Shown here one piece after another: positions 1 through 49,460 of a stretch of DNA of 64,000 nucleotides (position 1 is the stretch's first letter; the number at the start of each line of letters is the position of its first letter). The notes beneath the pieces were generated by a model. The model searched no databases, was not told the origin of the DNA, and saw nothing but the letters and a program-made list of their open reading frames with translations. Origin of the DNA: a bacterium (lineage in GTDB: Bacteria > Electryoneota > B3-LCP); NCBI GenBank assembly GCA_026394195.1, contig JAPKYS010000054.1, forward strand, positions 20,583 through 84,582, read 5' to 3'. The translations under genes and the position numbers were made by a program.

Positions 1-366
1 CGTACTCCAAACGACATAAGCGCCACCCTGTTCATCGGAAAGTACCTCGGGGATTCCGGAATTAATCCATTGAGGCAATCCGGGAGCTAACTGGGTCATC
101 GGAGGGAACTCGAAATTACCGAAGCGGTTTATGATCTGGTAAATTATGCCGTTGTAGTCATGGTGATATGCAACCAGCACCCTTCCATTGGGGAAGGTCA
201 GAGCACATGGTAAGTCTTCGATTACGTCAGGGTCGGTCGCAATCGCCACATTTTCTGCCACGGTTCTGGGCCAATGGGCTTGGGCGGGCAGCGCCCATAA
301 AGTGGCAAGCAGCGCCGCCAGCAGTAGGGTAGCCAGCGCGGTAAGGGTCAGGGTTTGGGTTTTCAT
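1..366 (-). CDS. Hypothetical secreted protein, 5-prime partial at window edge
   Basis: Reverse-complement translation from ATG at 366-364 gives MKTQTLTLTALATLLLAALLATLWALPAQA..., a cleavable signal peptide. The ORF is open to the window start. It is absent from the ORF track only because it runs off the edge. Confidence 0.4.
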   Translation of the reverse strand, partial: MKTQTLTLTALATLLLAALLATLWALPAQAHWPRTVAENVAIATDPDVIEDLPCALTFPNGRVLVAYHHDYNGIIYQIINRFGNFEFPPMTQLAPGLPQWINSGIPEVLSDEQGGAYVVWST

Positions 367-396
367 GAGAGGCTCCTTAAATATTTAATTGTTGGA

Positions 397-600
397 GGGA
401 CGGGCTCCGTCCCGTCCTTGAGACAGTAACCAAGTAACCAGGTGAACAAGTAACCAGGTTTTAAGGACACGACGGAGCGTGTCCCTCCAGTCAGGCAGGA
501 ATGCCTGACCTCCCCATCAGCCCTCGCCCCGCCCTGAAGAACGGGGCTACGTCTAACTAGCCCCATGAATGGGGCAAAAAAGCAAATCAGGGCGGCACGC
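397..600. repeat. Composite of short palindromic repeat modules: GGGACGG hairpin 397-413, GTAACCAAGTAACC module 427-458, GGACACGAC..GTGTCC module 465-488, TCAGGCA hairpin 491-508, CCCCATGAATGGGG module 553-575
   Basis: Inverted repeats are visible directly. The same modules recur at 6860-6909, 24583-24620, 28722-28747, 49461-49494 and 10078-10095. Confidence 0.6.
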
Positions 601-735
601 AGTGCGCCTCTACATCTCGTGCCTCGAAACTCGCGTATCAAGAATATAATCACGAAATCTCCCAAAGTCAAGATTTATTTTCCAACCGAAGATAATTGTA
701 AGCCGTTTCTCTAAATTAATTTCCGATGTTAAGGC

Positions 736-812
736 GTGTCATTCCGGCTGGTCCGGAATCTGACACGCCGTCGGATTCCCGACGCATCCCTTCGGGACTT
801 GCGGGAATGACG
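736..812. repeat. ATTCC..GGAAT palindromic repeat unit (GTGTCATTCCGG..CCGGAATCTGACAC plus GATTCCCGACGCATCCCTTCGGGACTTGCGGGAATGAC)
   Basis: A near-identical 38-mer sits at 10218-10257. The reverse-complement copy of the first half is at 14724-14756. Related units are at 4102-4175, 33527-33573, 45767-45800, 49544-49578 and 60236-60300. Confidence 0.6.
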
Positions 813-912
813 GCCTGGTGTGCTGGGAATGTCGAGACTAAGAGATTAATATCAAGAAATGCTATAAATAAACCAAAATCCCGAAATTTCCTCCCATTAA
901 GCATCTTCCTGC

Positions 913-3404: not shown

Positions 3405-3647
3405 ATGAAAGTCATTGCATTTGTGCTCATCTCGGTCTCAGTAGGGAAAGCCCGGGAAGTCTATCGCGCCCTGCAAGATATGCGGGAAGTCGCCCAGGTC
3501 AATGCCATTTCCGGACCGTACGACATTATCGTCCGAATTGAGGCTTTCGACTTTGCCTCCATCGGAGCTTTGGTACTGGACAAGATCCAGGCGATCCCCG
3601 GCATCGAAGATACGATAACCTGTCAGGTTATCCCCATGGAGCAGTAA
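3405..3647 (+). CDS. Stand-alone Lrp/AsnC-type RAM (ligand-binding) domain protein, 80 aa, no HTH
   Basis: VSVGKAREVYRALQDMREVAQVNAISGPYDIIVRIEA is a typical AsnC C-terminal fold. A GGAAGGA RBS lies before the ATG. Confidence 0.65.
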   Translation: MKVIAFVLISVSVGKAREVYRALQDMREVAQVNAISGPYDIIVRIEAFDFASIGALVLDKIQAIPGIEDTITCQVIPMEQ

Positions 3648-3741: not shown

Positions 3742-3984
3742 GTGCAAAGTGGCGCATACATCCTCATCTCCGTAACTGTCGGCAAAGCCCGCAAGGTCTT
3801 CGAGCAATTGGCGGCGCTGCCTGAAATTGCCCGAGTTGACGCCATTTCCGGACCTTATGACCTCATTGCCCGGGTGGAAGCGTCTGATTTTGGAGTGGTC
3901 GGTGTCCTGGTCCTGGATAAAATCCAGGCGATCCCCGGCGTGGTGGACACGGTCACCTGCCACGTGATCCCGATGAAGACATAG
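3742..3984 (+). CDS. Stand-alone Lrp/AsnC-type RAM domain protein, tandem paralog; GTG start with AGGAGG RBS
   Basis: About 65% identity to the 3405 gene product (VTVGKARKVFEQLAALPEIARVDAISGPYDLIARVEA). An AGGAGG sits 7 nt upstream of GTG 3742. The track ORF starts at 3715. Confidence 0.6.
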   Translation: MQSGAYILISVTVGKARKVFEQLAALPEIARVDAISGPYDLIARVEASDFGVVGVLVLDKIQAIPGVVDTVTCHVIPMKT

Positions 3985-4101
3985 GAGCTGCGAAGCTATT
4001 CGCAGCAGTTTCCTGTCCGAATCGACTATTAGGGGTTCGCTCCAGAACTTCTGTCCAATACTTATTAATCCGACCGGGAAATACTCGACAAACTATAGGC
4101 C

Positions 4102-4175
4102 GTCATTCCCGCAAGCGAAGCGCGTCGGGAATCGGACAGCCAATTCCGAATTCGCCCAGGCGGACGGTATGACTG
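4102..4175. repeat. ATTCCC-N16-GGGAAT palindromic repeat unit (GTCATTCCCGCAAGCGAAGCGCGTCGGGAATC..)
   Basis: Same family as 45767-45800 (GTCATTCCGGCAAGCGAAGCGCGTCCGGAATC). Confidence 0.55.
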
Positions 4176-6813: not shown

Positions 6814-6818
6814 CATCG

Positions 6819-6842
6819 GAGGGGCGCGCTTCGTCGCGCCCT
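6819..6842 (+). terminator. GC hairpin GGGGCGCGC-TTCGT-CGCGCCC directly after the M1 peptidase stop
   Basis: Perfect inverted repeat. Member of the GGGGCGCAGC..GCTGCGCCCC hairpin family. Confidence 0.4.
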
Positions 6843-6984
6843 GATGATCTCATAATTTTGGACACGACAAAGCGTGTCCCTCCGGTTGTGGGCGGTTTTC
6901 GAACCGCCCCTTTCTGTTATGGGTAAAACAACGCTGAAAAAGCACCCCACCCCCAGAAAAATTTTCCTGAATATAAAATTCTAC

Positions 6985-7013
6985 TTGACTTTGACTAAAT
7001 AATTGAGTATATT
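6985..7013 (+). promoter_or_regulatory. Sigma70-like promoter TTGACT (6985-6990) - 17 nt - TATATT (7008-7013), with AATTGAGTATATT
   Basis: Same architecture and 13-mer as 913-941. About 170 nt upstream of the C25 peptidase start. Confidence 0.45.
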
Positions 7014-10014: not shown

Positions 10015-10044
10015 TAGCATTCAGCACTCAGCAATCAGCAATCA

Positions 10045-10075
10045 GTAGGGGCGCAGCGTGCTGCGCCCCTTTTTA
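10045..10075 (+). terminator. Rho-independent terminator: GTAGGGGCGCAGCGTGCTGCGCCCC followed by TTTTT
   Basis: Perfect GC-rich hairpin plus T-run 30 nt after the C25 peptidase stop. One of at least 9 copies of this hairpin family in the window. Confidence 0.65.
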
Positions 10076-10179
10076 GTGCCCCATTCATGGGGTATGTCAG
10101 TCGTAGCACACTGCTTCAGCGGTGCGCGGGGAATGGTTTGTCTTTGACACGTCCGTTTCAGCGGACTGAAGGTTATAAG

Positions 10180-10257
10180 CCCGGGAATTCATTCCCGGGA
10201 GCGTCATGGAAGCAGGTGATTCCCGACGCGTCCCTTCGAGACTTGCGGGAATGACAC
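10180..10257. repeat. ATTCC palindromic repeat unit (CCCGGGAATTCATTCCCGGG plus GATTCCCGACGCGTCCCTTCGAGACTTGCGGGAATGAC)
   Basis: 38-mer nearly identical to 775-812. The first module recurs at 60262-60281. Confidence 0.55.
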
Positions 10258-10420
10258 CATTTCTTGGGTCGGGGCAAAGCCCGACCACTACGCGGCGTTT
10301 TCATCAGCGTAATCAGTGTCATCCGTGTAATCAGCGATTCAGACAATTTTCCCAGCGTCAGGTCTCTGTTCCGGCAACTGTCAAACTTTCACTGATTAGC
10401 GACAATACTCAAATCTCCCC

Positions 10421-10449
10421 TTGCCATATTTCGTTAATATTAGTATATT
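10421..10449 (+). promoter_or_regulatory. Sigma70-like promoter TTGCCA - 17 nt - TATATT upstream of the acetyl-CoA synthetase gene
   Basis: -35/-10 spacing of 17 nt, about 40 nt before ATG 10491. Confidence 0.4.
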
Positions 10450-10490
10450 AGAGTGCTTTCACACTTTCTCAACCTTCTCGGAGACTCTGA

Positions 10491-14543: not shown

Positions 14544-14685
14544 ATCTATCTTTCTTTGCTTTCGCGTCAGGTCAAGTCCCGTTTCAACAGGACGCGGCCT
14601 GACGCTTTTATTTTCAGCCTGATGCCACGTCTTATTACATTTCTTGAAAATGATCTCCAATCGCACATATTCCACACACAAAGCC

Positions 14686-14757
14686 GTCATTCCTCCGCCT
14701 CTGGCGGATCGGGAATCCAACGGCGTGTCTGATTCCGGACCAGCCGGAATGACACGC
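14686..14757. repeat. ATTCC palindromic repeat unit (reverse-complement copy of 738-768)
   Basis: CGTGTCTGATTCCGGACCAGCCGGAATGACAC is the reverse complement of GTGTCATTCCGGCTGGTCCGGAATCTGACACG. Confidence 0.55.
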
Positions 14758-14892
14758 TTCTATATCGGAAATTACTTCCAAGAACTGGTATAAGAGCGAG
14801 AAGATTTTGTGAATTTTTTCGAAATCTGAACTTTTCTCCTCCTTCGGACGTATCACTAAAAAAATCGGAAAGCTATCTATCCACATCAAGAC

Positions 14893-16191
14893 ATGAAGCA
14901 ATTAACGATTTTCGTCCTGCTGATCGCATTTTTTCTATCCGCCCCCGCCACTGCTCAGCCTGACCCCGATAGTCTGCTGGCAGCCTATATCCAGGAAGCC
15001 TGGACCAACCACCCTGACCTGAAAGCCATGCAAGCCATGGTTTCCGCCGACAGCAGCAGAGTTGGAATGAGCGGATCATGGATGAATCCCGAACTCAGAA
15101 TCGGCTTGATGAACCTGCCCGATACTTTCAATCTCTGGTCCGATCCCATGACCATGCTACAGGTGGGCATCATGCAGCAAATCCCCTTTCCCGGCAAGCT
15201 GCATCGCGCAGCCAGGGCTGAACAAGCTCGCACGGCAGCAGCTCGCGCCGACTTGGAACGCGGCAGAGACGAGATGGCGGCTATGGTGGCGATGGCATTC
15301 TACGATCTGGCTGCGGCTTACCAGATAAGAACCGCCATGCTGCAGGGGCAAACTTTAGCCGATCAGATGACCCAATCCGCCGCTCTGATGGTCGGTTCGG
15401 GCATGGGAGCCCAATCCGATCTATACAAGGCGCGGTTGGATGAGGAGCAGTGGAAACTGAAGCTGTCTACCAATCAGGATGAGATCGAACAGAAGCGATC
15501 TACGCTGGCTTACGCACTGGGACGCTCCGATGCTCAAGCCATTGCCGATGTGATTCTCCCAAATCAACCACCTCCACTGCCAGATCCCCTTACTTCCTTC
15601 GATGATTCGCCCGGGCTCCGCAGTTCTCAATTGTTAGTCCAGGCTGCCCAGAGCTCGCTTGAACGGGCGCGGCTGGATTACTATCCAGACGTTAACGTCA
15701 TGCTGGCGTACGGTTTGCGCGGCGATCTGAAAGTCGGCAGCATGGGAAATCCGATGAACGAGCCCTTGAAACAGGATAACATGATTTCCCTGGAACTCTC
15801 TTTCCCCATCCCGCTTTTTTATCGTGGGAACCAGGCTGCTAAAACTCAGGAAATGGGAGCGATGCTGACTCAAAGTCAGAATGTCTATCAGAAAATCCGC
15901 CTGGAAAAACGGCGGGAGTTGGACCAAATTTACGCACATTGGAAATCAAAACTCGATAATTATCATACGACGGTTGAACGCATTTTACCCGCAGCCGATA
16001 ATCTCTGGAATTCAACCTTGAATGACTACAGAGCCGGCAAAGTGACGATCATGAACCTGGCGCAGGCTCGCATGAGCCTGGTGATGGCTCGTATGGATGC
16101 AGCCATGCTGCTGGCGGATACCTGGGCTCTGCGTGGACAGTGGCAGGCTGCGTTGGGAATGCCGCTGGTCGAATCCAAGGAAGGAAATTAA
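14893..16191 (+). CDS. cusC: RND efflux outer-membrane factor (CusC/CzcC/TolC family)
   Basis: Signal peptide. Two-repeat OEP architecture. Operon position ahead of the membrane-fusion and RND pump genes. Confidence 0.7.
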   Translation: MKQLTIFVLLIAFFLSAPATAQPDPDSLLAAYIQEAWTNHPDLKAMQAMVSADSSRVGMSGSWMNPELRIGLMNLPDTFNLWSDPMTMLQVGIMQQIPFPGKLHRAARAEQARTAAARADLERGRDEMAAMVAMAFYDLAAAYQIRTAMLQGQTLADQMTQSAALMVGSGMGAQSDLYKARLDEEQWKLKLSTNQDEIEQKRSTLAYALGRSDAQAIADVILPNQPPPLPDPLTSFDDSPGLRSSQLLVQAAQSSLERARLDYYPDVNVMLAYGLRGDLKVGSMGNPMNEPLKQDNMISLELSFPIPLFYRGNQAAKTQEMGAMLTQSQNVYQKIRLEKRRELDQIYAHWKSKLDNYHTTVERILPAADNLWNSTLNDYRAGKVTIMNLAQARMSLVMARMDAAMLLADTWALRGQWQAALGMPLVESKEGN

Positions 16192-16193
16192 CC

Positions 16194-17744
16194 ATGACGC
16201 AATCGAAATCCCGGCTGGTGGGATGGCTGGTTTTAATCGTAGTCATCAGCATTGCACTCTATCTCTACTTCGGGCTGATTCATAATAAAGACACTCAGAA
16301 CTCTCAACCGCCTGCGGCGAAAGAGGTCTACACCTGCCCCATGCATCCGGAGATCATACGGGATAATCCTGGTGATTGCCCTATCTGCGGCATGAAATTG
16401 GTGATCATGAAAACCGCCGACAGTACCGTAACGAATCCGTCATCTCAACCGGAATCGAAATCCGCTGAATCCAACGAGGCTGTGAAATATCAGTGCCCCA
16501 TGCATCCAGCGATCATCCGGGATCAACCGGGTGACTGCCCCATCTGCGGCATGAAACTGGTCCAGATGAAGAGTACTTCCCAGAACCAGGGAACGTCTCA
16601 TCCCTCGGATCCCAAGAGGATCGCATTCTATCGCTCACCGATGGATCCCAAACAGACTTCACCGACGCCCCGCAAGGACGAGATGGGGATGGACTATATT
16701 CCAGTCTATGAAGAAGAGGCTTCCGGCGGTGGGGGCAACGTATCCAACCGCGTTGAGGTCACTATCGATCCATCGCGGCAGCAATTGATCGGACTCCGTA
16801 CAGCCACTGTCATGCACAGCGATATCAGCTCTGACTGGCGTACCGTCGGAGTCGTCCAGATCAATCCCACCAAAGTGACGAAAACGAACGTCAAAGTATT
16901 TGGCTACGTGGAAAAAGTTTTTGCAGATTTCGTCGGCAAATCCGTACGACGCGGCGAACCCCTTTTCACCTACTACAGCCCCGATCTCCTGGCGGCACAG
17001 CAGGATTACCTGCTTGCTCATAAGGCGAGCCGCTCAGGCGGCGTCGATGCGTCAAACGACAGTCTGATGCTTTCCGTGGTGCGCCAGAAACTGATGCTCT
17101 GGGACGTCTCTCAAGTAGACATTATTCGGCTTGAACAGACCGGAGCGGCAACCAGGGCGTTGACCATTGTTTCGCCGGTTACCGGAGTTGTCACGGCAAA
17201 AAACATTGTCGCGGGTTCATCCATGAATCCCGGTGACGCAGCATACGAAATCACTGACCTGAATTCGGTTTGGGTCCTCGCCGATGCTTACCAATCCGAT
17301 GCAGCTAACATCAAAATCGGTATGTCAGCCACTATAACTTTGCAATCCTTGCCGCATCGTATCTTCAAGGGAACTGTAGCGTTTGTCGATCCGTTGCTGG
17401 ATCCACAGAGTCGTACATTTAAAGTTCGAATCAACGTCGATAATTCCAGCGGCGAGCTGAAGCCCGAAATGTTTGCAGATATCGAGCTTCAGAGTTCAGG
17501 ACATGATGCGCTGACGATTCCGGCAGATGCCATCATCCCATCCGGAAGAACGAATATGGTTTTTGTCGCCCTTAGCGAAGGCAAATTCCAGCCTCGAGCA
17601 GTAAAGTTGGGTGAGAAATCCGGCGACCGCGTCGAGGTTATAGAAGGGCTCAGCGAGGGCGAAAATGTCGTTACACGCGCGAATTTCTTGATAGATTCCG
17701 AGTCCTCGCTCCGCTCTGCACTGGCTGCCGTGGGAGGGAATTAG
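16194..17744 (+). CDS. cusB: Efflux RND periplasmic adaptor (CusB/CzcB-type) with two N-terminal heavy-metal-binding domains
   Basis: Duplicated YTCPMHPEIIRDNPGDCPICGMKL / YQCPMHPAIIRDQPGDCPICGMKL (HMBD, CPxCGM). The membrane-fusion-protein body follows. AAGGAAA RBS before ATG 16194. Confidence 0.8.
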   Translation: MTQSKSRLVGWLVLIVVISIALYLYFGLIHNKDTQNSQPPAAKEVYTCPMHPEIIRDNPGDCPICGMKLVIMKTADSTVTNPSSQPESKSAESNEAVKYQCPMHPAIIRDQPGDCPICGMKLVQMKSTSQNQGTSHPSDPKRIAFYRSPMDPKQTSPTPRKDEMGMDYIPVYEEEASGGGGNVSNRVEVTIDPSRQQLIGLRTATVMHSDISSDWRTVGVVQINPTKVTKTNVKVFGYVEKVFADFVGKSVRRGEPLFTYYSPDLLAAQQDYLLAHKASRSGGVDASNDSLMLSVVRQKLMLWDVSQVDIIRLEQTGAATRALTIVSPVTGVVTAKNIVAGSSMNPGDAAYEITDLNSVWVLADAYQSDAANIKIGMSATITLQSLPHRIFKGTVAFVDPLLDPQSRTFKVRINVDNSSGELKPEMFADIELQSSGHDALTIPADAIIPSGRTNMVFVALSEGKFQPRAVKLGEKSGDRVEVIEGLSEGENVVTRANFLIDSESSLRSALAAVGGN

Positions 17745-17745
17745 C

Positions 17746-20700
17746 ATGTTGCAGCGGATTATTCGCTTTTCCGCCGAGAACAAGTTCCTCGTAGTCGGAG
17801 CCACGTTGGTTGCGCTGATGATCGCATTCTGGACCATGCAGCGCATTCCGCTGGATGCATTGCCCGATCTTTCAGACACACAGGTGATTGTGTATTCCAA
17901 GTGGGATCGCAGTCCGGACATTCTTGAAGATCAGGTGACTTACCCGATCATCAGTGCCCTACTCGGTGCGCCCAAGGTTAAGGCAATCCGCGGATTCTCA
18001 GATTTCGGCTACAGCTATGTCTACGTGATTTTCGAAGACGGCACGGACATCTACTGGGCGCGAACACGCGTGCTCGAATACCTTTCCAAGATCACTTCGC
18101 AACTTCCCGCCGGCGTGAAGACTGAATTGGGGCCAGATGCAACAAGTCTTGGATGGGTTTTTCAATACGCCCTGCTGGACTCTACCGGGAAGAATAGCAG
18201 TGATGAGTTGCGCAGTTACCAGGATTGGTTTTTACGGTACGAGGTTCAGAGCGTACCCGGTGTGGCAGAGGTGGCTACAGTTGGTGGTCAGGTGCGGCAG
18301 TACCAGATAACAGTCGATCCGAATAAACTTGCCAATTACGGTTTGCCGCTGGACAGGGTGGTCGAGGCGGTCCGCAAGGGCAACAACGACGTAGGCGGTC
18401 GCCTCGTGGAAATTTCCGGCCGTGAATATATGGTGCGTGGTCGAGGGTATGTGAAATCCATCGGTGATCTCGAGAGTCTCGTCCTCAAATCGGAGAATGG
18501 CACGCCGATCACAGTCAAAGACGTCGCGACTGTGCAATTAGGCCCGGAATTGAGACGTGGTATCGCCGATTACAACGGCAAAGGGGACGTTGTCGGTGGT
18601 ATCGTGGTTATGCGTCAGGGAGAGAACGCGCTGAACGTGATTAATCGCGTGAAAGCCAAATTGGAGGATCTTAAGCCTTCGCTACCGCCCGGTGCGACGA
18701 TTATCACCACGTATGACCGCTCGGAACTGATTGATCGAGCGATTGATACGGTGAAAAGCAAGCTCATTGAAGAAATGATCGTCGTTGCGCTCATCATCCT
18801 TTTGTTCCTCTGGCATATTCCTTCTGCGTCAATTCCGATTGTAACCATACCTGTGAGTGTAGCGCTGGCATTCATTCCCATGTACTTAATGGGGCTCACT
18901 GCCAACTTGATGTCGCTTGCCGGTATCGCGATTTCCATCGGTGTCCTCGTGGATGGAGCGATTGTGGAGGTGGAGAACGCGTACAACAAGATCTATCACT
19001 GGCAGGCAGCCGGGTCAAAAGGTGATTTTTACAAGGTGCGACTTGAAGCCCTGATGGAAGTGGGACCTTCAGTATTCTTCTCGCTGCTCGTGATAGCGGT
19101 TGCCTTCATGCCCATCTTTACGCTGGTAGATCAGGAAGGTCGTCTGTTTAAGCCGCTTGCCTATTCGAAGAATCTTGCCATGGCGATTGCCGCGATTCTC
19201 GCCGTTACGCTTGATCCGGCAATGCGGATGATGTTCGCGCGCATTAAACCGTATCAGTTCAAACCCAAATTCCTCGCATGGACCGCCACCAAACTTGTGG
19301 TTGGAAAGTATTATTCCGAAGAAAAGCACCCCATCAGCAAGTTGATGCACAGGATCTATGACGGTCCTTGCCGTTTTGTGCTGCGACACCCCAAAGCCAC
19401 GATTCTGGCGAGTTTCGTGATAGTGCTTCTGACCATTCCGGTCTATATGAAGCTTGGATCCGAATTCATGCCGCCGCTCCGGGAAGGATCTCTGCTGTAC
19501 ATGCCTTCTGCTGTGCAGCCGGGAATGTCCGTTGCCGAGGCGCAGCAAGCTCTGCAGGTACAAGATAAGTTGCTGATGACGATTCCCGAGATCGACCGTG
19601 TTTTCGGCAAGGCTGGTCGCGCGGAAACATCCACCGATCCCGCGCCATTCACCATGATGGAAACGACCATTCTTTTGAAGCCCGAATCGCAATGGCGCGA
19701 AAAGCCTCGTTGGTATTCAAGCTGGTCCCCGGAGTGGTTGAAAAGCGTCCTTCGCACCATGTGGCGTGACCGGATTACGGAAGCTGAATTGGTCGCCGAA
19801 TTGGATGAGACGCTGCAGTTGCCAGGCATCAGCAACGCCTGGACGATGCCGATTAAGGCTCGTCTCGACATGCTGTCAACGGGGATTCGCACACCCGTGG
19901 GCATTAAGGTATCGGGCGCCGATCTCGCTACCATTCAGCAAATCGCCGTAAATATCGAGACCGCTCTGCAAAAGGTTCCGGATACTCGCAGCGTCTATGC
20001 GGAACGCGTTGCGGGTGGCTACTTCCTTGATTTCGTATTGAAACGAGATCGACTGGCTCGTTATGGCCTCTCTGTTGATGATGCCAACATGATGGTCATG
20101 ACCGCAGTCGGCGGCGATAATCAAACCACCACCTATGAAGGTCGGGCGCGCTATGGTGTGAATGTTCGCTATGCTCGGGACTTCCGAAACGATCTCAATG
20201 CCCTGCGTCGTGTTCTGATTTCCCTGCCCGATGGCAAGGGACAAATTCCCATGGAGGAGATCGCTGACATTAATTTGGTGGAAGGTCCGTCGATGATTCG
20301 AGACGAGAACGGTCTCCTGGCGGGCTATGTCTTCGTGGACTTCGACCCTTCCAAAGTGGACGTCGGGCGGTATGTTGAGAATGCGAAACAGGCAGTAGCT
20401 GCCTCCGTGACAACTCCCGCCGGCTATTCGTTAGTTTGGAGTGGGCAGTACGAAAATATGTTACGAGTGCAGGAACGGCTGAAGTTCATTGTGCCTCTTA
20501 CGCTGGTGTTGATCTTCGCCTTGCTCTATATGAATACCAAATCGGGATTCAAATCCCTGGTTGTGATGCTCGCAGTTCCGTTTTCAGCGGTCGGCGCGAT
20601 CTGGTTGCTGTATCTGCTCGGATACAACATCTCCATCGCGGTTTGGGTTGGCATGATTGCGCTGTTAGGTCTCGATGCAGAAACCGGAGTCTTCATGCTG

Positions 20701-21042
20701 CTCTTTCTCGATCTCTCGCATGCTGAGGCGAAAGCCAAAGGACTACTCCGTACTACCGGCGATCTGACGGAAGCAATCGTGCATGGCGCCGTAAAACGAG
20801 TTCGCCCCAAGGCGATGACGGTCTTCGCCGCGTTTCTCGGATTGCTGCCAATCATGTGGTCAACGGGAACTGGGTCGGACGTCATGAAGCGCATCGCCGC
20901 TCCCATGGTCGGAGGTTTGATCACCTCATTTGCCATGGAACTTCTGGTCTATCCCCCTATCTACTATCTGTGGAAGCGGAAGGAAGTTGTTCCTGGAGAG
21001 CCGACGTCACCCGAAGTGGTAACCTCGATGCCTGTTGCCTGA
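17746..21042 (+). CDS. cusA: Heavy-metal efflux RND transporter, CusA/CzcA family
   Basis: 1098 aa. 12-TM RND architecture. Translationally coupled (1-nt gap) to the adaptor gene. Confidence 0.85.
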   Translation: MLQRIIRFSAENKFLVVGATLVALMIAFWTMQRIPLDALPDLSDTQVIVYSKWDRSPDILEDQVTYPIISALLGAPKVKAIRGFSDFGYSYVYVIFEDGTDIYWARTRVLEYLSKITSQLPAGVKTELGPDATSLGWVFQYALLDSTGKNSSDELRSYQDWFLRYEVQSVPGVAEVATVGGQVRQYQITVDPNKLANYGLPLDRVVEAVRKGNNDVGGRLVEISGREYMVRGRGYVKSIGDLESLVLKSENGTPITVKDVATVQLGPELRRGIADYNGKGDVVGGIVVMRQGENALNVINRVKAKLEDLKPSLPPGATIITTYDRSELIDRAIDTVKSKLIEEMIVVALIILLFLWHIPSASIPIVTIPVSVALAFIPMYLMGLTANLMSLAGIAISIGVLVDGAIVEVENAYNKIYHWQAAGSKGDFYKVRLEALMEVGPSVFFSLLVIAVAFMPIFTLVDQEGRLFKPLAYSKNLAMAIAAILAVTLDPAMRMMFARIKPYQFKPKFLAWTATKLVVGKYYSEEKHPISKLMHRIYDGPCRFVLRHPKATILASFVIVLLTIPVYMKLGSEFMPPLREGSLLYMPSAVQPGMSVAEAQQALQVQDKLLMTIPEIDRVFGKAGRAETSTDPAPFTMMETTILLKPESQWREKPRWYSSWSPEWLKSVLRTMWRDRITEAELVAELDETLQLPGISNAWTMPIKARLDMLSTGIRTPVGIKVSGADLATIQQIAVNIETALQKVPDTRSVYAERVAGGYFLDFVLKRDRLARYGLSVDDANMMVMTAVGGDNQTTTYEGRARYGVNVRYARDFRNDLNALRRVLISLPDGKGQIPMEEIADINLVEGPSMIRDENGLLAGYVFVDFDPSKVDVGRYVENAKQAVAASVTTPAGYSLVWSGQYENMLRVQERLKFIVPLTLVLIFALLYMNTKSGFKSLVVMLAVPFSAVGAIWLLYLLGYNISIAVWVGMIALLGLDAETGVFMLLFLDLSHAEAKAKGLLRTTGDLTEAIVHGAVKRVRPKAMTVFAAFLGLLPIMWSTGTGSDVMKRIAAPMVGGLITSFAMELLVYPPIYYLWKRKEVVPGEPTSPEVVTSMPVA

Positions 21043-21218
21043 TCGTATGGTCGCAGGGCACCGGCGCCGACCTGATGAAACCGATCGCAGCTCCGATGAT
21101 CGGCGGGCTGCTGACTTCAGCGGTGCACGTTCTGATCGTCACTCCGGTGATCTTCGCTCTGATGAAAGAGCGTGAAATGAAAAGAGGCGAGCTGAAACCG
21201 GCAGAAATGCATTTTTAA
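21037..21218 (+). pseudogene. Duplicated remnant of a cusA 3-prime end (last ~57 codons of a divergent CusA C-terminus) in the +2 frame relative to cusA
   Basis: LIVWSQGTGADLMKPIAAPMIGGLLTSAVHVLIVTPVIFALMKERE aligns with the cusA C-terminus LPIMWSTGTGSDVMKRIAAPMVGGLITSFAMELLVYPPIYYLWKRKE. Identity is about 70% at nucleotide level. Confidence 0.55.
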
Positions 21219-21246
21219 GGAAACCCTTCGTAGCTGAGAATAAACA

Positions 21247-21274
21247 GGGCGCAGCATGCTGCGCCCCGTTTTTC
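21247..21274. terminator. Bidirectional rho-independent terminator GGGCGCAGCATGCTGCGCCCC flanked by T-runs on both strands
   Basis: Hairpin followed by GTTTTTCT on plus and TGTTTATTCT on minus. Sits between the convergent cusA and SBBP-repeat genes. Confidence 0.6.
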
Positions 21275-21300
21275 TCGTGACTCGTGACTCGAAACTCGTA

Positions 21301-23142
21301 CTACTTCAGTAAAACCATTTTCCCTGTCAGCATAGTCGGGGTCGCCCCTGACCCCGACGCTGACAGTCTGTAGAGATAGACACCGGAGACCAGCTCTGAC
21401 CCATCAAACGTCACCTCGTGCGATCCCGCCTCCCTCCAGCCGTTGATTAACGTGGTAACCAACCGCCCGGAAACGTCGAACACCTCCAACGTTACGAGAC
21501 TGTTCGCAGGCAGATCAAAACAGATGATCGTAGTGGGGTTGAAGGGGTTGGGAAAGTTCTGCTCCAAGCGATACTCTGACGGCAGCGGCGCGCCGAAAGC
21601 GGTTGCGACCGGCTGCTGCCAGTTGGGCAGGTCGGTAGCGGAATATTTGATGGTGGCGTAGTCGCTACCGGTTCCTATTCCCCTGCTATAACCTGTTACG
21701 TAGGCGTTGCCGTTGCCGTCCACCTCCAGGCTGGTAGCATAATCATCGCCGTTACCAGACCCCTGGTAGCGCGCCACCCACTCCTGAACTCCGGCGGAAT
21801 TGTACTTGATGCTGGCGTAGTCTTCATTAGTCTCCCCGCTTCCAGGACTATAACCTGTTACATAGACGTTGCCGCTGCCGTCCACCGCCAGGCTGGTAGC
21901 CTCATCATAGTCGTTACCAGGCCCATTATAGCGCGCCACCCACTGCTGAACTCCGGTGGAATTGTACTTGATGGTGGCGTAGTCGTAACCAGTCCCGCCT
22001 CCATCACTCCAACCCGTTACGTAGACGTTGCCGCTGCCGTCCACCGCCAGGCTGTTAGCACTATCAACGTCGTTATCAGTCCCGTTGTAGCGCGCCACCC
22101 ACTCCTGAACCCCGGAGGAATTGTACATCATGGTGGCGTAGTCTCGATTAGTCCCACTTCCATAACTATAACCTGTTATGTAGATGTTGCCGCTGCCGTC
22201 CACCGCCAGGCTGGTAGCCTCATCAGGGTCGCTACCAGGCCCGTTGTAGCGCGCCACCCACTGCTGAACCCCGGAGGAATTGTACTTGATGGTGGCGTAG
22301 TCGCCATTAGTAGCGCTTCCCCAACTATAACCCGTTACGTAGACGTTGCCGCTGCCGTCCACCGCCAGGCTTCTAGCCCAATCATCGCGATTACCAGGCC
22401 CGTTGTAGCGCGCCGCCCACTCCTGAACTCCGGCGGAACTGTATTTGATGGTGGCGTAGTCGTCATAAGTCCCGCTTCCCCAACTATAACCCGTTACGTA
22501 GACGTTGCCGCTGCCGTCCACCGCCAGGCTTGTAGCATAATCATCGCCGTTACTAGGCCCGTTGTAGCGCGCCACCCACTCCTGAAATCCGGCGGAATTG
22601 TACTTGATGGTGGCGTAGTCGTCATCAGTCCCGCTTCCATGACTATAACCTGTCACGTAGACGTTGCCGCTGCCGTCCACCGCCAGGCTTGTAGCATAAT
22701 CATAGATGTTTCCCGGTCCGTTGTAGCGCGCCACCCATTCTGGCGGCTTCAGTTTACAAAAAACTAACTGATCGCTATCCCAGATGGTGTTGGGGTAGAT
22801 GCCGATATTGGCAGTCAAGACATAATTACCCATGGGCGATGCTGCTGGAGCGGTTTGCATAAAAGATCGTTGGATGGTTTGCCCCGCGGTAATCCCTGCC
22901 GTCCAAGGTTGCAGCGTCACGCGCTGTTCCCCATCCGGCGCGGTAATAACGCACCACAAGGTACATTGCTGGGGTGTGGATTCATGGTTGGTCACAGAAA
23001 CTTGATAGTTGAACGATCCCCCTTCCGGAGGGATCTCGGTGGGATTAATCAGTGGCGTGACTTGGACGGTGAGATACTGAGCGAAAGCGATAGTGGCGGT
23101 TACCAGCAGAACCGCAAGAATAGAGAAATGAGAACAGCGCAT
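21301..23142 (-). CDS. SBBP (beta-propeller) repeat protein with T9SS C-terminal sorting domain
   Basis: About 9 tandem ~47-aa repeats (EWVARYNGPGN.DDYATSLAVDGSGNVYVTGYS.GSGT.DDYATIKYNSAGVQ). Signal peptide. The CTD is QNFPNPFNPTTIICFDLP...GKMVLLK. Confidence 0.8.
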   Translation of the reverse strand: MRCSHFSILAVLLVTATIAFAQYLTVQVTPLINPTEIPPEGGSFNYQVSVTNHESTPQQCTLWCVITAPDGEQRVTLQPWTAGITAGQTIQRSFMQTAPAASPMGNYVLTANIGIYPNTIWDSDQLVFCKLKPPEWVARYNGPGNIYDYATSLAVDGSGNVYVTGYSHGSGTDDDYATIKYNSAGFQEWVARYNGPSNGDDYATSLAVDGSGNVYVTGYSWGSGTYDDYATIKYSSAGVQEWAARYNGPGNRDDWARSLAVDGSGNVYVTGYSWGSATNGDYATIKYNSSGVQQWVARYNGPGSDPDEATSLAVDGSGNIYITGYSYGSGTNRDYATMMYNSSGVQEWVARYNGTDNDVDSANSLAVDGSGNVYVTGWSDGGGTGYDYATIKYNSTGVQQWVARYNGPGNDYDEATSLAVDGSGNVYVTGYSPGSGETNEDYASIKYNSAGVQEWVARYQGSGNGDDYATSLEVDGNGNAYVTGYSRGIGTGSDYATIKYSATDLPNWQQPVATAFGAPLPSEYRLEQNFPNPFNPTTIICFDLPANSLVTLEVFDVSGRLVTTLINGWREAGSHEVTFDGSELVSGVYLYRLSASGSGATPTMLTGKMVLLK

Positions 23143-23264: not shown

Positions 23265-23374
23265 GCAAATAAATCGGCGGTGGAAAGAAATTCATGAAAT
23301 TTTGATCAGATAAAACCAATGAAAGCAAAAAAGCGACCCACCGGCCGCTTTATTCTTCTATCTTCAATCTCCAA

Positions 23375-23821
23375 TTATTGGCAAATCTTCCCTACAACCG
23401 ACAGAAACAGACACGTATACACCCCCACGATCACGTCGTCAATCATAATGCCCCAACCGCCGGGGAGTTTCTGCGACACACGCGCCGGAAAGGGTTTCCA
23501 CACGTCTAAGGCGCGGAAGATCAAGAAGGAAGCGATATAAACGGGGATGGTTCTGGGCAGAAACAACAGCGAGATCCACTGCCCCACGAACTCATCGAAG
23601 GTTGCTTGCTTGGGGTCATGGCCGTAGGTGTTCTCCATCTGGGTGCAGATGGGCACGCCGATGAAGAAGGTCACGACCACCAGGATAATCTGCGTGGTCG
23701 GTCGGAGCGGTGGCAGGAGTATCCAAATCAAAAGAGCAGCCAGGCTGCCCACCGTCCCCGATGCCACCGGAGCGTACCCCGTCCCCAACCCGCTGCCGAT
23801 GGCTTTAATGATGAATTTCAA
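23375..23821 (-). CDS. pgpA: Phosphatidylglycerophosphatase A
   Basis: GSGLGTGYAPVASGTVGSLAALLIWILL is the PgpA signature. 148 aa. Confidence 0.8.
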   Translation of the reverse strand: MKFIIKAIGSGLGTGYAPVASGTVGSLAALLIWILLPPLRPTTQIILVVVTFFIGVPICTQMENTYGHDPKQATFDEFVGQWISLLFLPRTIPVYIASFLIFRALDVWKPFPARVSQKLPGGWGIMIDDVIVGVYTCLFLSVVGKICQ

Positions 23822-24460: not shown

Positions 24461-24582
24461 GGCGTCAGCTGAGCTGGTTGACTGGCGTTTAAGCATCTTT
24501 GCATGATGCTCTTTACTGCCTTGTAGGGGCGCATGGCCTGCGCCCGTTTGTCCCGAATAGAGTACCCGCTGAAGACGTTTTT

Positions 24583-24620
24583 TACTTGGTTACTTGGTTA
24601 CTTATTCACTTGTTTACAAC
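24583..24620. repeat. GTAACCAAGTAACC-family repeat (reverse orientation)
   Basis: Reverse complement matches 427-458 and 49461-49494. Confidence 0.5.
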
Positions 24621-27792: not shown

Positions 27793-28027
27793 TTATTCCT
27801 CTATGGTTATGCTCTCATGATTCAGGGGAGGTTAATCCACACTGAATCGCGGTATTGCGCTTGTTTTCTAATGGATGAGTTTGCACCTTTCTTCACATAT
27901 CCCACTTTTCACGCATTACAGGTTCTTTAGTTCCTTTTACCTACCAATTTGGCGAAATAACTTGCTGAACATCTATTTTGAACTTAAAACTACACGATAT
28001 TATTTTTCATTCGTAATTCGTAATTGA

Positions 28028-28627: not shown

Positions 28628-28686
28628 ATAAAGTACCTAAAATTCTGCTTCCTTTCGGATCCGGAAAATCCGATCAAGGTGTTGTG

Positions 28687-28894
28687 TAGGGGCGCATGGC
28701 ATGCGCCCAGTGTTTTCATTTGCCCCATTCATGGGGCTAGTCAGACGTAGCACATTGCTTCAGCGATGTGCGCCCCACTTGATGGAGGCTGGGTTGCCCT
28801 CAACCCAGCTCTATTTGCCGCGGTGTGCGGGAATGGTTCGGGTCGGAGCGACCCCAACTATATCACGCACGTAGGAGCACAGCGTGCTGTGCCC
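28687..28894. repeat. Cluster of repeat modules: GC hairpins at 28687-28708 and 28871-28894, CCCCATTCATGGGG module 28722-28747
   Basis: Direct matches to the hairpin family and to the reverse complement of 553-575. Confidence 0.5.
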
Positions 28895-28967
28895 TGTAAC
28901 GGAATATAATTACAGTATAAACAAAATCTTGCCCGCGCCCACGAGGCATCTGCCAGAAACTGTACTC

Positions 28968-29309
28968 TTAAAACCCTGGAATTTTAAATCCCGGCGGCAA
29001 CCCGCCCATCAGACCGCCTGCCACGGAAGACATACGTTGATCGGCAACTTCCTTGGCGTTCTTCAGAGCCTGATTGACTGCGGCAGTCACCAGGTCTTCC
29101 AACATTTCCACTTCATTGGGATCGATGACTTCCGGATCGATCTTGATGGAGATGATCTCCTGTTTGCCGGAGGCTTTTACCGTGATTACCCCTCCTCCCG
29201 CGCTCGCTTCGACAATGATCTGCTCAAGTTCCGCCTGAGCTCTCGCCATGTTTTCCTGAAGCTTCTGCGCCTGCTTCAGCAGACCGTCCATCCCACCGAA
29301 TCGTTTCAT
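28968..29309 (-). CDS. ybaB: YbaB/EbfC family nucleoid-associated protein
   Basis: MDGLLKQAQKLQENMARAQAELEQ...VITVKASGKQEIISIKIDPEVID is the canonical YbaB. Lies between dnaX and recR. Confidence 0.85.
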   Translation of the reverse strand: MKRFGGMDGLLKQAQKLQENMARAQAELEQIIVEASAGGGVITVKASGKQEIISIKIDPEVIDPNEVEMLEDLVTAAVNQALKNAKEVADQRMSSVAGGLMGGLPPGFKIPGF

Positions 29310-29337
29310 TTTATGTCAACCTTGGTTGTTGTCTGAA

Positions 29338-30999: not shown

Positions 31000-31069
31000 G
31001 AAATGACTCTCTTAAATTGAGCGATAGATTAAATGGCTGTGCCCTATCTTCGATTTTACGCCGTCGTTT

Positions 31070-31215
31070 CACCGACTGGTCGCCGATTCCGGGCAAGCTC
31101 CCCCGCGGCACATCGAGTTGTCACTGACCGCTGCTCCCTTCCAGGCCTGACGGGGTTGGGTGGAACCAGATTGCGCGGGACTTGACCTTCAACATCACGT
31201 GCCGGCCGGATCCGG
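31070..31215 (-). ncRNA. ffs: Signal recognition particle RNA (4.5S/ffs), approximate ends
   Basis: Minus-strand sequence GUCAGGCCUGGAAGGGAGCAGCGGUCAG...GUGCCGCGGGGGAGC matches the helix-8 consensus GUCAGGUCCGGAAGGAAGCAGC...GUGCCGGG. Flanking segments can pair as a terminal helix. It sits in the classical ffs-dnaX position. Confidence 0.55.
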
Positions 31216-31340
31216 AGGCGAAAAAACCTTGGTATAGGTATTCAGCCCCGCTGTAGCGGATTTCGGGTTCAGGGCACCGCTAACTCCCCACCTAGCACAG
31301 CCAATAGTGCGGTGATAGCCTTCCTTGGTCTACCACCGAT

Positions 31341-31415
31341 CGGTGGAGCTGAGCGGGATCGAACCGCCGACCTATACGTTGCGAACGTATCGCTCTCCCA
31401 ATTGAGCTACAGCCC
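31341..31415 (-). tRNA. tRNA-Ala (anticodon CGC)
   Basis: Reverse complement GGGGCTGTAGCTCAATTGGGAGAGCGATACGTTCGCAACGTATAGGTCGGCGGTTCGATCCCGCTCAGCTCCACC folds as a cloverleaf. G3:U70 Ala identity pair. Anticodon loop TTCGCAA. GGTTCGATCC T-arm. Discriminator A. Confidence 0.85.
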
Positions 31416-31854
31416 CGATGAACATTGGTTTCAGGTTGCTTATAAAATAACACTCCAGAGCGGAAAAGTCAACCGATTTGCCGCTCAAATCTCACGCTTG
31501 ATTAAGGGAATTTTCTTTCGGCTTTCGGTATTAGAGAGGCTGATATTCGCCGCTCAATCCTGACCGGAATCGAGGCGATGGGCTGCAACGGATCAACGGA
31601 TTAGATTTGAGCATGGGACGCAGGATAGATTCGAGGTGAACCCATTGATGAGTCAACCACCTATTATTTGTTTGAAGTATTTATTTATAAAATAATTAGC
31701 TCTACGTTTTCCCGTGAGAGAAGAATTGGCAGACATTCTCGGCGCCTGCCACAGGCTGTGCAGCTCGATTCATGTTAATCTTTTAGATAAACTGACATTT
31801 CCGGCATTCAAATTGCATATAGGGTTGTGGATTAAATAAACTGGCTGGGGGAAG

Positions 31855-32538: not shown

Positions 32539-32648
32539 ATCCACGATCTATTTTTCAATCGATGCAGGGGCGCAGCATGCTGCGCCCTTACTGTTGCTCG
32601 CCGCTCGCGCACCCCTCCCCCTGAGCGCACGAAATCTCTCAAAATCAC

Positions 32649-32677
32649 TTGACAAAGACCCCTATATTTTATATATT
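32649..32677 (+). promoter_or_regulatory. Sigma70-like promoter TTGACA - 17 nt - TATATT upstream of the porin-like gene
   Basis: Consensus hexamers with 17-nt spacer about 45 nt before ATG 32723. Confidence 0.4.
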
Positions 32678-33397: not shown

Positions 33398-33420
33398 TCT
33401 GCTGAGCAGGATAAAAGTAA

Positions 33421-33455
33421 GCGGTCAGGACGCAAGTCCTGACCGCTTTTTATTT
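33421..33455 (+). terminator. Rho-independent terminator GCGGTCAGGAC-GCAA-GTCCTGACCGC followed by TTTTTATTT
   Basis: Perfect 11-bp stem, GNRA-like loop, T-run, 24 nt after the porin stop. A second family hairpin is at 33468-33493. Confidence 0.75.
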
Positions 33456-33600
33456 GACACCGTAACGTAGGGGCACAGCGTGCTGTGCCCCTACATTTTG
33501 CTCCCTGGCTTTGATTTATTCAAATGCAATCGCCTGTCATTCCGACTTGTTCGGAATCCGACAGGCGATTCGTTAATTCGTTTCTTAGGAACTCTAAGCT

Positions 33601-45466: not shown

Positions 45467-45877
45467 CACTTTTACGTTTAGAATTTGGGACCTTAGGTGG
45501 GATTTTGTGCTCAATTGCCTGATTAAATTAACCAAGTGGCAGCACAATTGCAAGGCAAATTATCAGAATTTAGACCTCAGTTTGTAAGATGGTGGAAGAA
45601 GAGTAGAGGTTTTTTTTAAATTCGTCATTCTTCAATCTTCAATCTTCAATCTCCAATTCGCAGCTGGGTGCCCCACAGCTCTGCTGTGGGTTGCTATGCT
45701 GGAGAAAACCGTAGTCGAGGTCGTCTGGCTTGCCATCCCTTCGGGGCCTGACCCCGACGGGAGTCAGTCATTCCGGCAAGCGAAGCGCGTCCGGAATCAC
45801 CTTGCCGTTACCGCCAACCTCGCCCCGCCCTGAAGGATGCGCCTTTTTTCTCGTGACTCGTGACACGTGACTCGTGG

Positions 45878-46100
45878 CTATTTTAAAATAACCACCTTCC
45901 CCGTCACCCGTTGCTGACCGGCGTCGAGGCGGATCAGATACACCCCCCAGTGCGCCCCTACAGCCCTCCCCTCCACATCGAACAATTCCACCCGCACCAA
46001 GCCCGCTCCCGGCAGCGTAAACCGCACCACCGCTCCGGCATTGGACGGGTTGGGGAAGAAAAAAGGCAGCAGAGAGCCGCCTTTAAGATTATTGAACCCG
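45878..46100 (-). pseudogene. Orphan, degenerate T9SS C-terminal sorting domain remnant (no upstream cargo body)
   Basis: Minus-strand frame reads ...FFFPNPSNAGAVVRFTLPGAGLVRVELFDVEGRAVGAHWGVYLIRLDAGQQRVTGKVVILK*. It has the CTD pattern (NPxN..I.F.LP.....V.L.V.D..GR.V....GKxVLLK) but lacks the middle segment. It is bounded upstream by the AT-rich island. Confidence 0.5.
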
Positions 46101-46116
46101 TCAAAGGAGCGTAGGA

Positions 46117-46971: not shown

Positions 46972-47504
46972 TAATTTGTTTCAATATCGTAATCTCCCTT
47001 CTTAGGATTAAAAAGAAATTTAACCTCTTGGGGGTAATCCTTCGCTGCAATTAAAAAAATTCGACGAATTTCTGCTATTGGTATTCGCCATATACAGTCA
47101 TTGCGATCATAATCTGAAACCACAAAAACGTCGCTCCAATTTCTACTCGCATCTCTAACTACAATGCTTGTGTACGCATGAATGAATTGGTTGGCAATAT
47201 ATCCAGGCTTTTTGATCTCGAGAATCTCTTGGTCCAAATTATAAAGCTCCCATATTTTGTGTCCATTTAGTTGAGTCACATTTTTGCCATGCGCCTGACA
47301 TGAGAACACGTTTAGCAGGTGTTCGCGAGTAGCTGTTGAGACTAGGCATAACTCAACCATTCTACGCACTATAAAGAAGCCTATCATAATATCTCGTTCG
47401 ATGATGCACTCAGCTCTATGGCTCCAGCGAGGTGGTTTAGGAACTCGGCGAAGGCTCCACGCAATGCGTTTAAGTTCTTCTTTCCAGTAACAGGACTCAA
47501 TCAT
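46971..47504 (-). CDS. Hypothetical protein (AT-rich island gene A, 177 aa)
   Basis: ORF translationally coupled to gene B. No family recognised. Confidence 0.5.
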   Translation of the reverse strand: MIESCYWKEELKRIAWSLRRVPKPPRWSHRAECIIERDIMIGFFIVRRMVELCLVSTATREHLLNVFSCQAHGKNVTQLNGHKIWELYNLDQEILEIKKPGYIANQFIHAYTSIVVRDASRNWSDVFVVSDYDRNDCIWRIPIAEIRRIFLIAAKDYPQEVKFLFNPKKGDYDIETN

Positions 47505-47656
47505 TAATCAACTACAGTTTAGAGATGATTAGATTAGCTTACCGTCAGATTCGATCTGGTGGTTCGATTTTTTAGCACGTCGTTAATACTATCAACCAGA
47601 GGTACCCGTCTCAGAGCTGAAGAGCCATTAAGGGATGATTATGTCCTGATGAAATT

Positions 47657-49457: not shown

Positions 49458-49460
49458 GAA

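Follow-up and report, generated by a model that had tools for sequence, protein, structure and literature searches.

The window analyzed here is a 64,000-nt stretch of bacterial DNA (assembly GCA_026394195.1, contig JAPKYS010000054.1, positions 20,583 to 84,582) from the GTDB lineage Electryoneota; B3-LCP. Candidate division LCP-89 is the nearest named relative of the host, the MoxR protein of the window is MCX6640986.1, and sorting domains for type IX secretion are present in many of the encoded proteins. Short repeat modules, designated a to h, lie in the intergenic regions; a and h are GTAG-tagged repetitive extragenic palindromes (REPs), and b and f are CGTC/TGTC-tagged REPs. These modules form mosaics and dimers, which supports and refines the initial annotation of the repeats as resembling REPs or bacterial interspersed mosaic elements (BIMEs) or miniature inverted-repeat transposable elements (MITEs). 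Most probably, several families of REP-type mobile DNA entered the gene junctions of this lineage after it split from its sequenced relatives. REP-type miniature mobile DNA in BIME-like mosaics is a well-described kind of feature, for which this host group is new; GTAG and CGTC REPs are now extended to an uncultivated lineage of the Fibrobacteres-Chlorobi-Bacteroidetes group.

Density and Placement of the Repeats

Repeated exact 16-mers (at least 200 nt apart, on either strand) covered 659 of 7,542 intergenic bases (8.7%) and, with three internal gene duplications set aside, 169 of about 54,000 coding bases (0.3%); shuffled sequence had about 32 bases in total under such repeats. This test was run at k = 14-18, and k = 12 was dropped because chance matches were too frequent. 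Perfect hairpins with a stem of at least 8 bp occurred at 2.39 per kb in intergenic DNA versus 0.25 per kb in coding DNA, a difference of about 10-fold. Searches with the module patterns gave 0-0.05 matches in dinucleotide shuffles, and a repeat finder sorted the listed sites into families. The fold z scores of the modules other than c were from about -3 to -6.7, and compensated stem changes between copies were seen in a, b1, and h. No Rfam family was found for any module at gathering and E-value thresholds.

The repeats were thus above random expectation, and nearly all copies listed in the initial annotation were present, with positions shifted by 1-8 nt. The claim that they fill nearly every intergenic region was true of gaps of at least 180 bp, about 15 of 17 of which held modules, and failed for gaps shorter than 150 bp (0 of about 11). 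A rare long gap without repeats contained, at 31037-31416 on the - strand, a large-type bacterial signal recognition particle RNA (Rfam, 149.6 bits) beside tRNA-Ala(CGC).

GTAG-Tagged Modules a and h

Module a has the form GTAG-GGGCGCAGC-NN-GCTGCGCCC-CTAC, a "double-foot" GTAG...CTAC palindrome. It has the features of a GTAG-tagged REP, namely a palindrome of 20-40 bp with GT[AG]G at the foot of the stem, and so has module h, which consists of GTAG, an 8-bp stem, and a TTCA loop. The window contained 9-10 copies of a, none of them in confirmed coding sequence. Nine had been reported; eight of these stood (10045, 21247, 24523, 28687, 28871, 32564, 33467, and 60315), while the site at 6819 was only a-like (GGAG-GGGCGCG..CGCGCCC, without GTAG). 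A tenth, degenerate copy was located at 589-612 on the - strand.

Three sub-variants of a were distinguished: the stem GCGCAGC/GCTGCGC (10045, 21247, 32564, and 60315), the compensated stem GCACAGC/GCTGTGC (28871 and 33467), and the shorter GGGGCGCA-TGGCM-TGCGCCC (24523 and 28687). Both feet were kept only in the copy at 33467-33494 (+), which is the best-preserved double-foot a, with a perfect 13-bp stem and a compensated change of G-C to A-T. All other copies in the window had lost one or both feet; that at 32564-32591 had the 3' foot only, and that at 60315-60342 the 5' foot only.

Module e was confirmed at its three reported sites (561 on the - strand, 10079, and 28723) and always lay within an a+e+h composite of about 90 nt. 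The alignment of the three copies showed the order a, T-run, GCCCCATTCATGGGGC, linker CTAGTCAGAC, and h. The three h stems were different yet complementary, the TTCA loop was invariant, and the copy at 28.7 kb had an additional hairpin nested within it. The composite pattern had 0 matches in the JGI metagenomes, and, alone among the modules, it looks restricted in distribution.

CGTC-Tagged Modules b and f

Module b was present at all eight sites given for it and additionally at 774-813, 10218-10257, and 14727-14760. It comprises b1 (TGTC-ATTCCGG-N4-6-CCGGAAT, enclosed by a further stem), b2 (CGTC-ATTCCCGC...GYCGGGAAT, the loop of which is structured), and b3 (CCCGGGAATTCATTCCCGGG). A b1+b2 block of about 110 nt occurred in two copies of inverted orientation, at 707-815 and 14681-14784 (76 nt at 87%). 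Module f, also present where it had been reported (48151-48249, 49511-49632, and 50645-50728), is CGTC-tagged with nested stems, the outer being GTCATTGCGAG/CTCGCAATGAC and the inner CGAAGCAATC/GATTGCTTCG; the complete f folded at -27.8 kcal/mol (z = -6.7).

REPs fall into two super-families, GTAG-tagged and CGTC-tagged, according to Di Nocera et al. (2013; PMC3733652). The stems of the latter "almost invariably" start with AT, TGTC often stands for CGTC, head-to-head dimers are formed, no transposase is known for them, and they include Neisseria dRS3 (PMC3733652). The b and f units agree with this description in their terminal CGTC/TGTC, in their AT-first stems (ATTCCSG and ATTGCGAG, as in TGTC-ATTCCGG, CGTC-ATTCCCGC, and CGTC-ATTGCGAG), in their clustered mosaics, and in having no adjacent transposase. 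Head-to-head dimers occurred at 707-815 and 14681-14784 and also among the metagenome copies. Unlike the published CGTC REPs, which have loops of 4-5 nt and a CCA tail (PMC3733652), b2 and f had internally structured loops of 11-50 nt, b1 had loops of 4-6 nt, and the tails of the b and f units were CTG, CCG, or CGG. b2 and f are therefore variants of the CGTC family in a non-canonical form. The published CGTC families are mostly from Alphaproteobacteria (PMC3733652), whereas the copies described here come from the metagenome-assembled genome (MAG) of a candidate phylum and from many viral contigs.

Comparison of Gene Junctions with Relatives

Syntenic loci were compared with relatives having 68-87% protein identity to the window; the closest relative (JGI 3300075153) was compared by gene map. 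The MoxR/DUF58 junction was 13 bp in two relatives (L120 and L121), 76 bp in L123, 292 bp in L126, and 282 bp in the window. The window gap contained c, an f-type module, b1, and g, while the gap of L126 contained different hairpins, including a GTAG-GGGTCGGG REP. At the ybaB/recR junction, the gap was 0 bp in the closest relative, 14 bp in L386, 211 bp in L387, and 340 bp in the window (28628-28967), where a, e, h, the nested hairpin, and a second a were found. The gap of L387 (9790-10000) held a b1+b2-type CGTC dimer; since the REP families in the window and in L387 were different, the entries at this junction were independent. The junction between the thiamine pyrophosphate (TPP)-enzyme and the cytidine diphosphate (CDP)-OH transferase genes was 1-23 bp in the relatives and 183 bp in the window.

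The third gene of the Bat operon had about 45 extra N-terminal residues, which held a complete f (50645-50728, + strand; GTCATTGCGAG...CGAAGCAATC...GATTGCTTCG...CTCGCAATGAC) in frame at codons 12-39. The orthologues had no such extension, and their signal peptide followed straight after the start codon. No alternative in-frame ATG, GTG, or TTG was present past f, so that the reported overlap of a repeat with coding sequence at 50612-50730 is genuine.

These junctions showed insertions: they were mostly short and repeat-free in the relatives, and the expanded ones (L126 and L387) held other hairpins. The repeats account for the oversized intergenic regions and for one real N-terminal protein extension.

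A longer segment was also specific to the window. Two overlapping genes of 284 and 177 aa on the - strand (46117-47504) had a GC content of 41%, compared with about 53% elsewhere, and lay in the interval from the C25 peptidase gene to the MoxR gene, which is only 290-500 bp long in the relatives. Neither gene had a match in Pfam, NCBIfam, or PADLOC. With REP-rich DNA on either side, this segment has the look of an inserted island.

Distribution of the Modules in Other Genomes

Module a was searched for in other genomes with a 22-nt core, using one genome per species. The exact core was found in at least 119 genome stretches (8-kb segments), in MAGs whose labels span more than 12 phyla; these phylum names are the submitters' labels, which makes the breadth across phyla approximate, and some matches, such as those in Patescibacteria and Gracilibacteria MAGs, may come from mis-binned contigs. 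Among the 125 copies at the 119 loci listed, the conserved unit was exactly the 28-nt GTAGGGGCGCAGCATGCTGCGCCCCTAC and the flanks were unrelated. The double foot (5' GT[AG]G, 3' C[TC]AC) was present as GTAG...CTAC in most of these 125 copies, as in the window copy at 33467. Almost none of the other modules occurred at the 119 loci, and the modules are therefore independent families and not one element.

At least 120 JGI metagenome contigs and 13 viral contigs contained b1, in many cases as part of the b1+b2 dimer. f was found in at least 120 IMG/VR contigs (L133-L252), where its neighbors were genes for capsid, portal, terminase, and head-tail proteins and where 2-4 copies were present in some contigs; it was also found in Novosphingobium (40 places on one replicon), Methylobacterium, and Aulosira. 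Because a, b1, and f are present in many other genomes and contigs, the suggestion that the repeats could serve as a genome signature of this lineage fails for these main modules.

No transposase was seen near f at the 120 IMG/VR loci. Clustering of the ORFs in the 1.2-1.5 kb around f (120 viral loci) and b1 (133 loci) gave no recurrent transposase; only phage structural and housekeeping genes recurred. A 343-aa Y1-type protein (NHYH) occurred at 3 of the 133 b1 loci; at the two inspected in detail, it was 650-830 bp from the repeat with other features between, and an association with b1 is not claimed. The length and motif of this protein may place it in class 2.1 or 2.3 of PMC6006769.

In plasmids, the 28-mer of a had only 26/30 matches, which fell in a LysR gene of enterobacterial plasmids and were irrelevant. 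Translated from either strand, the 28-mer gives VGAQHAAPL, and look-alike "proteins" arise from it in many genomes.

Association of Module a with RAYT Genes

A homologue of the REP-associated tyrosine transposase (RAYT) lay right at the 28-mer in three of the 119 loci listed (L020, L108, and L109). In a Gemmatimonadota MAG (L020), a 200-aa RAYT had perfect copies of a 2 bp after and 9 bp before it. In a Desulfuromonas MAG (L108), one copy lay 55 bp upstream of the RAYT and another within the gene, where it encoded VGAQHAAPL between NHVH and WQRNYYEH. In a Dehalococcoidia MAG (L109), a copy lay across the RAYT stop codon, and a variant was present in the gene at the same place as in L108. The three proteins matched NCBIfam REP_Tyr_transpos (E about 1e-18) and Pfam Y1_Tnp. 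They were only 44-56% identical to one another; the adjacent REP was identical. As a rough judgement, three adjacent RAYTs in the 119 8-kb segments listed would be far above chance for an approximately single-copy gene. The exact sequence of a thus forms REPtrons with RAYTs in other genomes. In L109 (6304-7845), the RAYT was split by an IS3-like element of two ORFs, the second of which resembles an IS3-type transposase.

Quentin et al. (2018; PMC6006769) described double-foot REPs (GT[AG]G...C[TC]AC) for TnpA-REP subclass 2.4, the signature of which includes these REPs, REP insertions in tnpA, and a patchy spread over phyla. The subclass 2.4 protein has about 194 aa with the motifs NH[IFV]H, WQ, and YIxNNP (Table 1, PMC6006769). 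The motifs found here were close to this set and not exactly the same: NHVH/WQ/YIAANP in L108 (197 aa), NHVH/WQ/YIQENP in L109, and DHVH/WQ/YIRDNP in L020. Module a resembles this system in having GTAG/CTAC at the ends of a long GC-rich stem; elsewhere, its 28-mer flanks RAYTs and, as an in-frame insertion, separates their HuH motif from their Y motif. These RAYTs also come close to the published ones (about 197-200 aa, NHVH/DHVH, WQ, YIxxNP), with a patchy occurrence across phyla. In contrast to subclass 2.4, the window has no RAYT and its copies of a are mostly degenerate, and the host group, related to LCP-89, lies outside the sample of that paper. The likeness is one of features, the text of PMC6006769 not containing the sequence of this REP.

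It is doubtful, though possible, that a few REP "species" are cosmopolitan, given that the same 28-mer occurs in more than 12 labelled phyla beside RAYTs of 44-56% identity and that the same CGTC cores of 24-26 nt are shared by hundreds of contigs from metagenomes and phages. If this were true, it would mean frequent cross-phylum transfer, possibly phage-borne, or an unusually strong constraint of the enzyme on the DNA, and the CGTC copies of phages might offer a handle on the movement of CGTC repeats. The identity of the 28-mer across phyla, the CGTC REPs in phage contigs, and the repeated insertion at one junction are the less ordinary points, which may be of interest to those working on RAYTs and CGTC repeats.

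Proposed Origin of the Repeats and Alternative Explanations

For a, and probably h, single-stranded DNA would be recognized through the hairpin and its GTAG foot by a RAYT (HuH/Y1) encoded elsewhere in the genome, and copies would spread, or would have spread in the past, as the enzyme cuts and rejoins the DNA. This scheme is drawn from the biochemistry of the family; PMC6006769 cites work on E. coli TnpA-REP that established the recognition of single-stranded hairpins. The CGTC/TGTC-tagged b and f, often head-to-head dimers, would be moved by another, unnamed route. The untagged hairpins (d, e, and g) and the 7-8-nt arrays (c) would travel with the REPs or build up beside them, giving BIME-like mosaics. 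Once inserted, most elements would be passive hairpins in DNA and transcripts, a few T-tailed ones past genes would probably terminate transcription, and one lies in frame within what would be a dispensable N-terminal protein segment.

The repeats resemble E. coli REP/BIME and REPINs in their clusters of differing palindromes, their short conserved linkers, their intergenic location, and their inverted dimers, and mobilization in trans by a single-copy RAYT is thought to apply to both. Unlike those elements, the repeats of the window have other sequences, and the a+e+h composites are arranged head-to-tail and not in alternating orientation.

Several points weigh against the entry of REP-type families as mobile DNA. 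No RAYT was found in the 64-kb window by tblastn, and an active RAYT partner for a in this genome is putative. The loss of feet in all window copies of a except that at 33467 suggests old, decaying copies and not ongoing transposition. The evidence for a putative mobility of b1 and f consists of their copy number and of their presence or absence at syntenic loci. For single copies, deletion in the relatives, which are 68-87% identical, stays an alternative to insertion, and so do other timings of the insertion. A function of the repeats as terminators or RNA stabilizers is predicted from sequence features only.

Three other origins were weighed. The hairpins might be locally evolved signals, such as terminators, attenuators, or protein-binding sites, that look alike by convergence. 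Four copies of a have T-rich tails on the + strand, those at 10047 and 21247 lie past co-oriented genes, and many modules stand directly past stop codons. However, the copies have loops, tags, and flanking linkers in common over 28-110 nt, and some lie in a divergent promoter region (367-987), without T-tails in operons, and in a coding region. Unrelated phyla and phage contigs also have the same sequences, and the orthologous junctions of the relatives are without repeats. This explanation is very improbable.

The repeats might instead be classical MITEs, that is, deletion derivatives of insertion sequences (ISs) with a DDE transposase, with terminal inverted repeats and target-site duplications, like Correia elements. 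The full f, which spans about 85 nt and has terminal inverted repeats of 11 bp (GTCATTGCGAG/CTCGCAATGAC), and the copying of the b1+b2 unit (about 110 nt) as a block would fit such an origin. However, no target-site duplication was seen at the ends of f or b1+b2 in the window, viral, and metagenome copies inspected, no IS transposase recurred nearby, and the tags and stems fit the definition of CGTC REPs (PMC3733652); a MITE origin is highly unlikely. Phages, IS110-family recombinases, or other mobile elements have been reported to use Neisseria dRS3 as a landing site, and the CGTC repeats of the window might likewise be mainly landing sites for elements that maintain or spread them. The presence of f and b1 in many viral contigs would agree with this, as would the 1.4-kb two-gene island of 41% GC, absent from the relatives and situated between REP-rich stretches (45554-48434). 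Since the repeats of the viral contigs lie among structural genes and not at contig ends or beside integrases, and no recombinase was found in the island or near the repeats, a landing-site origin is very improbable.

Possible Effects of the Repeats on Transcription Signals and Gene Calls

A consensus terminator scan flagged a at 10047, 21247, 28690, and 33467 on the + strand. At 10047 and 21247, the hairpin and its T-run lie downstream of co-oriented genes. The T-tail at 28690 is on the non-transcribed strand of the operon, the hairpin at 33467 is redundant, following a classical terminator unrelated to the repeats (33419-33448), and the mosaics in operons are without a T-run when read in the direction of the mRNA. 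The initial annotation held that some copies act as terminators; this is plausible for 10047 and 21247 only, and modules other than a had no terminator-like hairpin with a T-run past a gene.

A second reported overlap with the 5' end of a coding sequence (726-986) proved to be an artefact of the ORF start. The homologues of the 336-aa ORF starting at 726 have about 248 aa and aligned only to its C-terminal 72-74%, the NCBI call is 263 aa, the methyltransferase domain begins at about residue 121-134 of the ORF, and a TTGACT-17-TATATT promoter lies at 913-941; the start at 726 is therefore an artefact, and the true start is at or after 945/987. Five other ORFs of 80-150 aa that run through mosaics, 363-671 (-), 28884-29336 (+), 10206-10451 (+), 14635-14901 (-), and 49424-49798 (-), had no family match and are probably spurious. 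The repeats explain the spurious ORFs 363-671 and 28884-29336 and the start at 726.

Sigma-70-type near-consensus promoters (TTGACW-17-TATATT) were observed at 913-941, 6985-7013, 10421-10449, and 32649-32677, and on the - strand at 671-643 and 23264-23236. They lie just upstream of genes, share gaps with the repeats, and are the source of repeat family D19.

Tandem Arrays and Untagged Hairpins

Module c had been described as hairpin-forming. It is an 8-nt tandem array (AGTAACCA x4; 425-459, + strand, found with TRF) that folded no better than shuffled sequence (z = -0.64), and it is therefore not hairpin-forming; its kin lie at 49459-49497 (+) and 24578-24615 (-). The two reported copies of d, at 465 and 6860, were confirmed. 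The first (465-488, + strand) consists of GGACACG-N6-CGTGTCC followed by CTCC (dG -7, z = -2.8), the second occupies 6860-6883, and an 8-bp hairpin unrelated to d follows the first copy at 490-509.

Nine short tandem arrays, built of 7-8-nt units, were observed, all intergenic: 425-459, 10016-10045, 21274-21299, 23354-23375, 24578-24615, 28009-28025, 45625-45657, 45850-45876, and 49459-49497. In five of them, about 3 nt at most separate the start of the array from a stop codon, whether the gene is on the + or the - strand. The units differ (AGCAATC, CTCGTGA, TCTTCAA, ATTCGTA, and AGTAACCA). Slippage in unconstrained 3' untranslated regions, or co-insertion of some arrays with the mosaics, is possible.

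Organization of the Individual Mosaics

On the - strand at 525-612, a composite REP cluster identified by the three-copy alignment contained the degenerate a (589-612), a T-run, e (GCCCCATTCATGGGGC, 558-575), and h (525-550). The head-to-head CGTC-type dimer at 707-815 (+), upstream of the methyltransferase gene, was composed of b1 (TGTC-ATTCCGG-CTGG-TCCGGAAT, 736-763) and a reverse b2 (774-813); the dimer at 14681-14784 (-) is its inverted copy. A b2 of the form CGTC-ATTCCCGC-AAGCGAAGCGC-GTCGGGAAT was located at 4097-4133 (+) by repeat family and fold, with sisters at 14681-14717 and 45762-45798. At 6818-6909 (+), the a-like hairpin without GTAG (6818-6842) was followed by d and by a T-tailed hairpin, GGGCGGTT-ttcg-AACCGCCC, the tail being T-rich (6890-6909).

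Directly past the C25 peptidase stop codon, the mosaic at 10016-10257 (+) contained a 7-nt array (10016-10045), a with a T5 tail (10045-10072), e+h (10077-10131), b3 (10159-10199), and a reverse b2 (10218-10257). Between convergent genes, a copy of a (21243-21267) was T-rich on both sides; the 7-nt array at 21274-21299 abutted the stop codon of the - strand gene, and g (GTCGGGGTC-gcccct-GACCCCGAC, 21328-21359) lay in the last codons of that gene. The gap between the TPP-enzyme and CDP-alcohol phosphatidyltransferase genes held the a variant GTAGGGGCGCATGGCCTGCGCCC (24522-24545) and the 8-nt array at 24578-24615. The composite in the dnaX-ybaB-recR operon (28685-28896, +) consisted of an a variant (28685-28709), e+h (28719-28772), the nested hairpin (28788-28809), a g-like hairpin (about 28838-28860), and a second a variant (28871-28896).

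A b1 with compensated outer-stem changes was present at 33522-33560 (+). Between 45625 and 45876, two 7-nt arrays (45625-45657 and 45850-45876) accompanied a b2 (45762-45798) and a partial h (45818-45842). On the - strand, a truncated f (48151-48204) was followed by GTCGTTTCAACGAC hairpin and AACGAGCACCCG-hairpin modules (48208-48263). The MoxR/DUF58 mosaic (49459-49700, +) contained the 8-nt array, GTCGTTGAAACGAC, b1 (49544-49580), the AACGAGCACCCG hairpin, and g (49669-49700). The mosaic at 60235-60342 (+) consisted of b3 (60235-60275) and the copy of a with the 5' foot only.

Other Features of the Window

The ORF of a CusA/CzcA-type resistance-nodulation-division transporter (17746-21218) stops at 21042, and its conserved C-terminal part (...PIAAPMIGGLLTSAVHVLIVTPVIF...) continues in another frame to 21218, an apparent frameshift or sequencing error near the 3' end. 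In a CusB-like adaptor gene, a 77-nt duplication (16335-16411 and 16494-16570, 159 nt apart) was observed, with a metal-binding-like motif (CPMHPEI..GDCPICGM). Two tandem paralogues of 80 aa (3405-3647 and 3742-3984; about 70% DNA identity) resemble the C-terminal RAM domain of Lrp/AsnC without the helix-turn-helix. A 159-bp unit repeated 6.6 times in tandem (21686-22737) was found in a 613-aa SBBP beta-propeller protein with a type IX secretion sorting domain.

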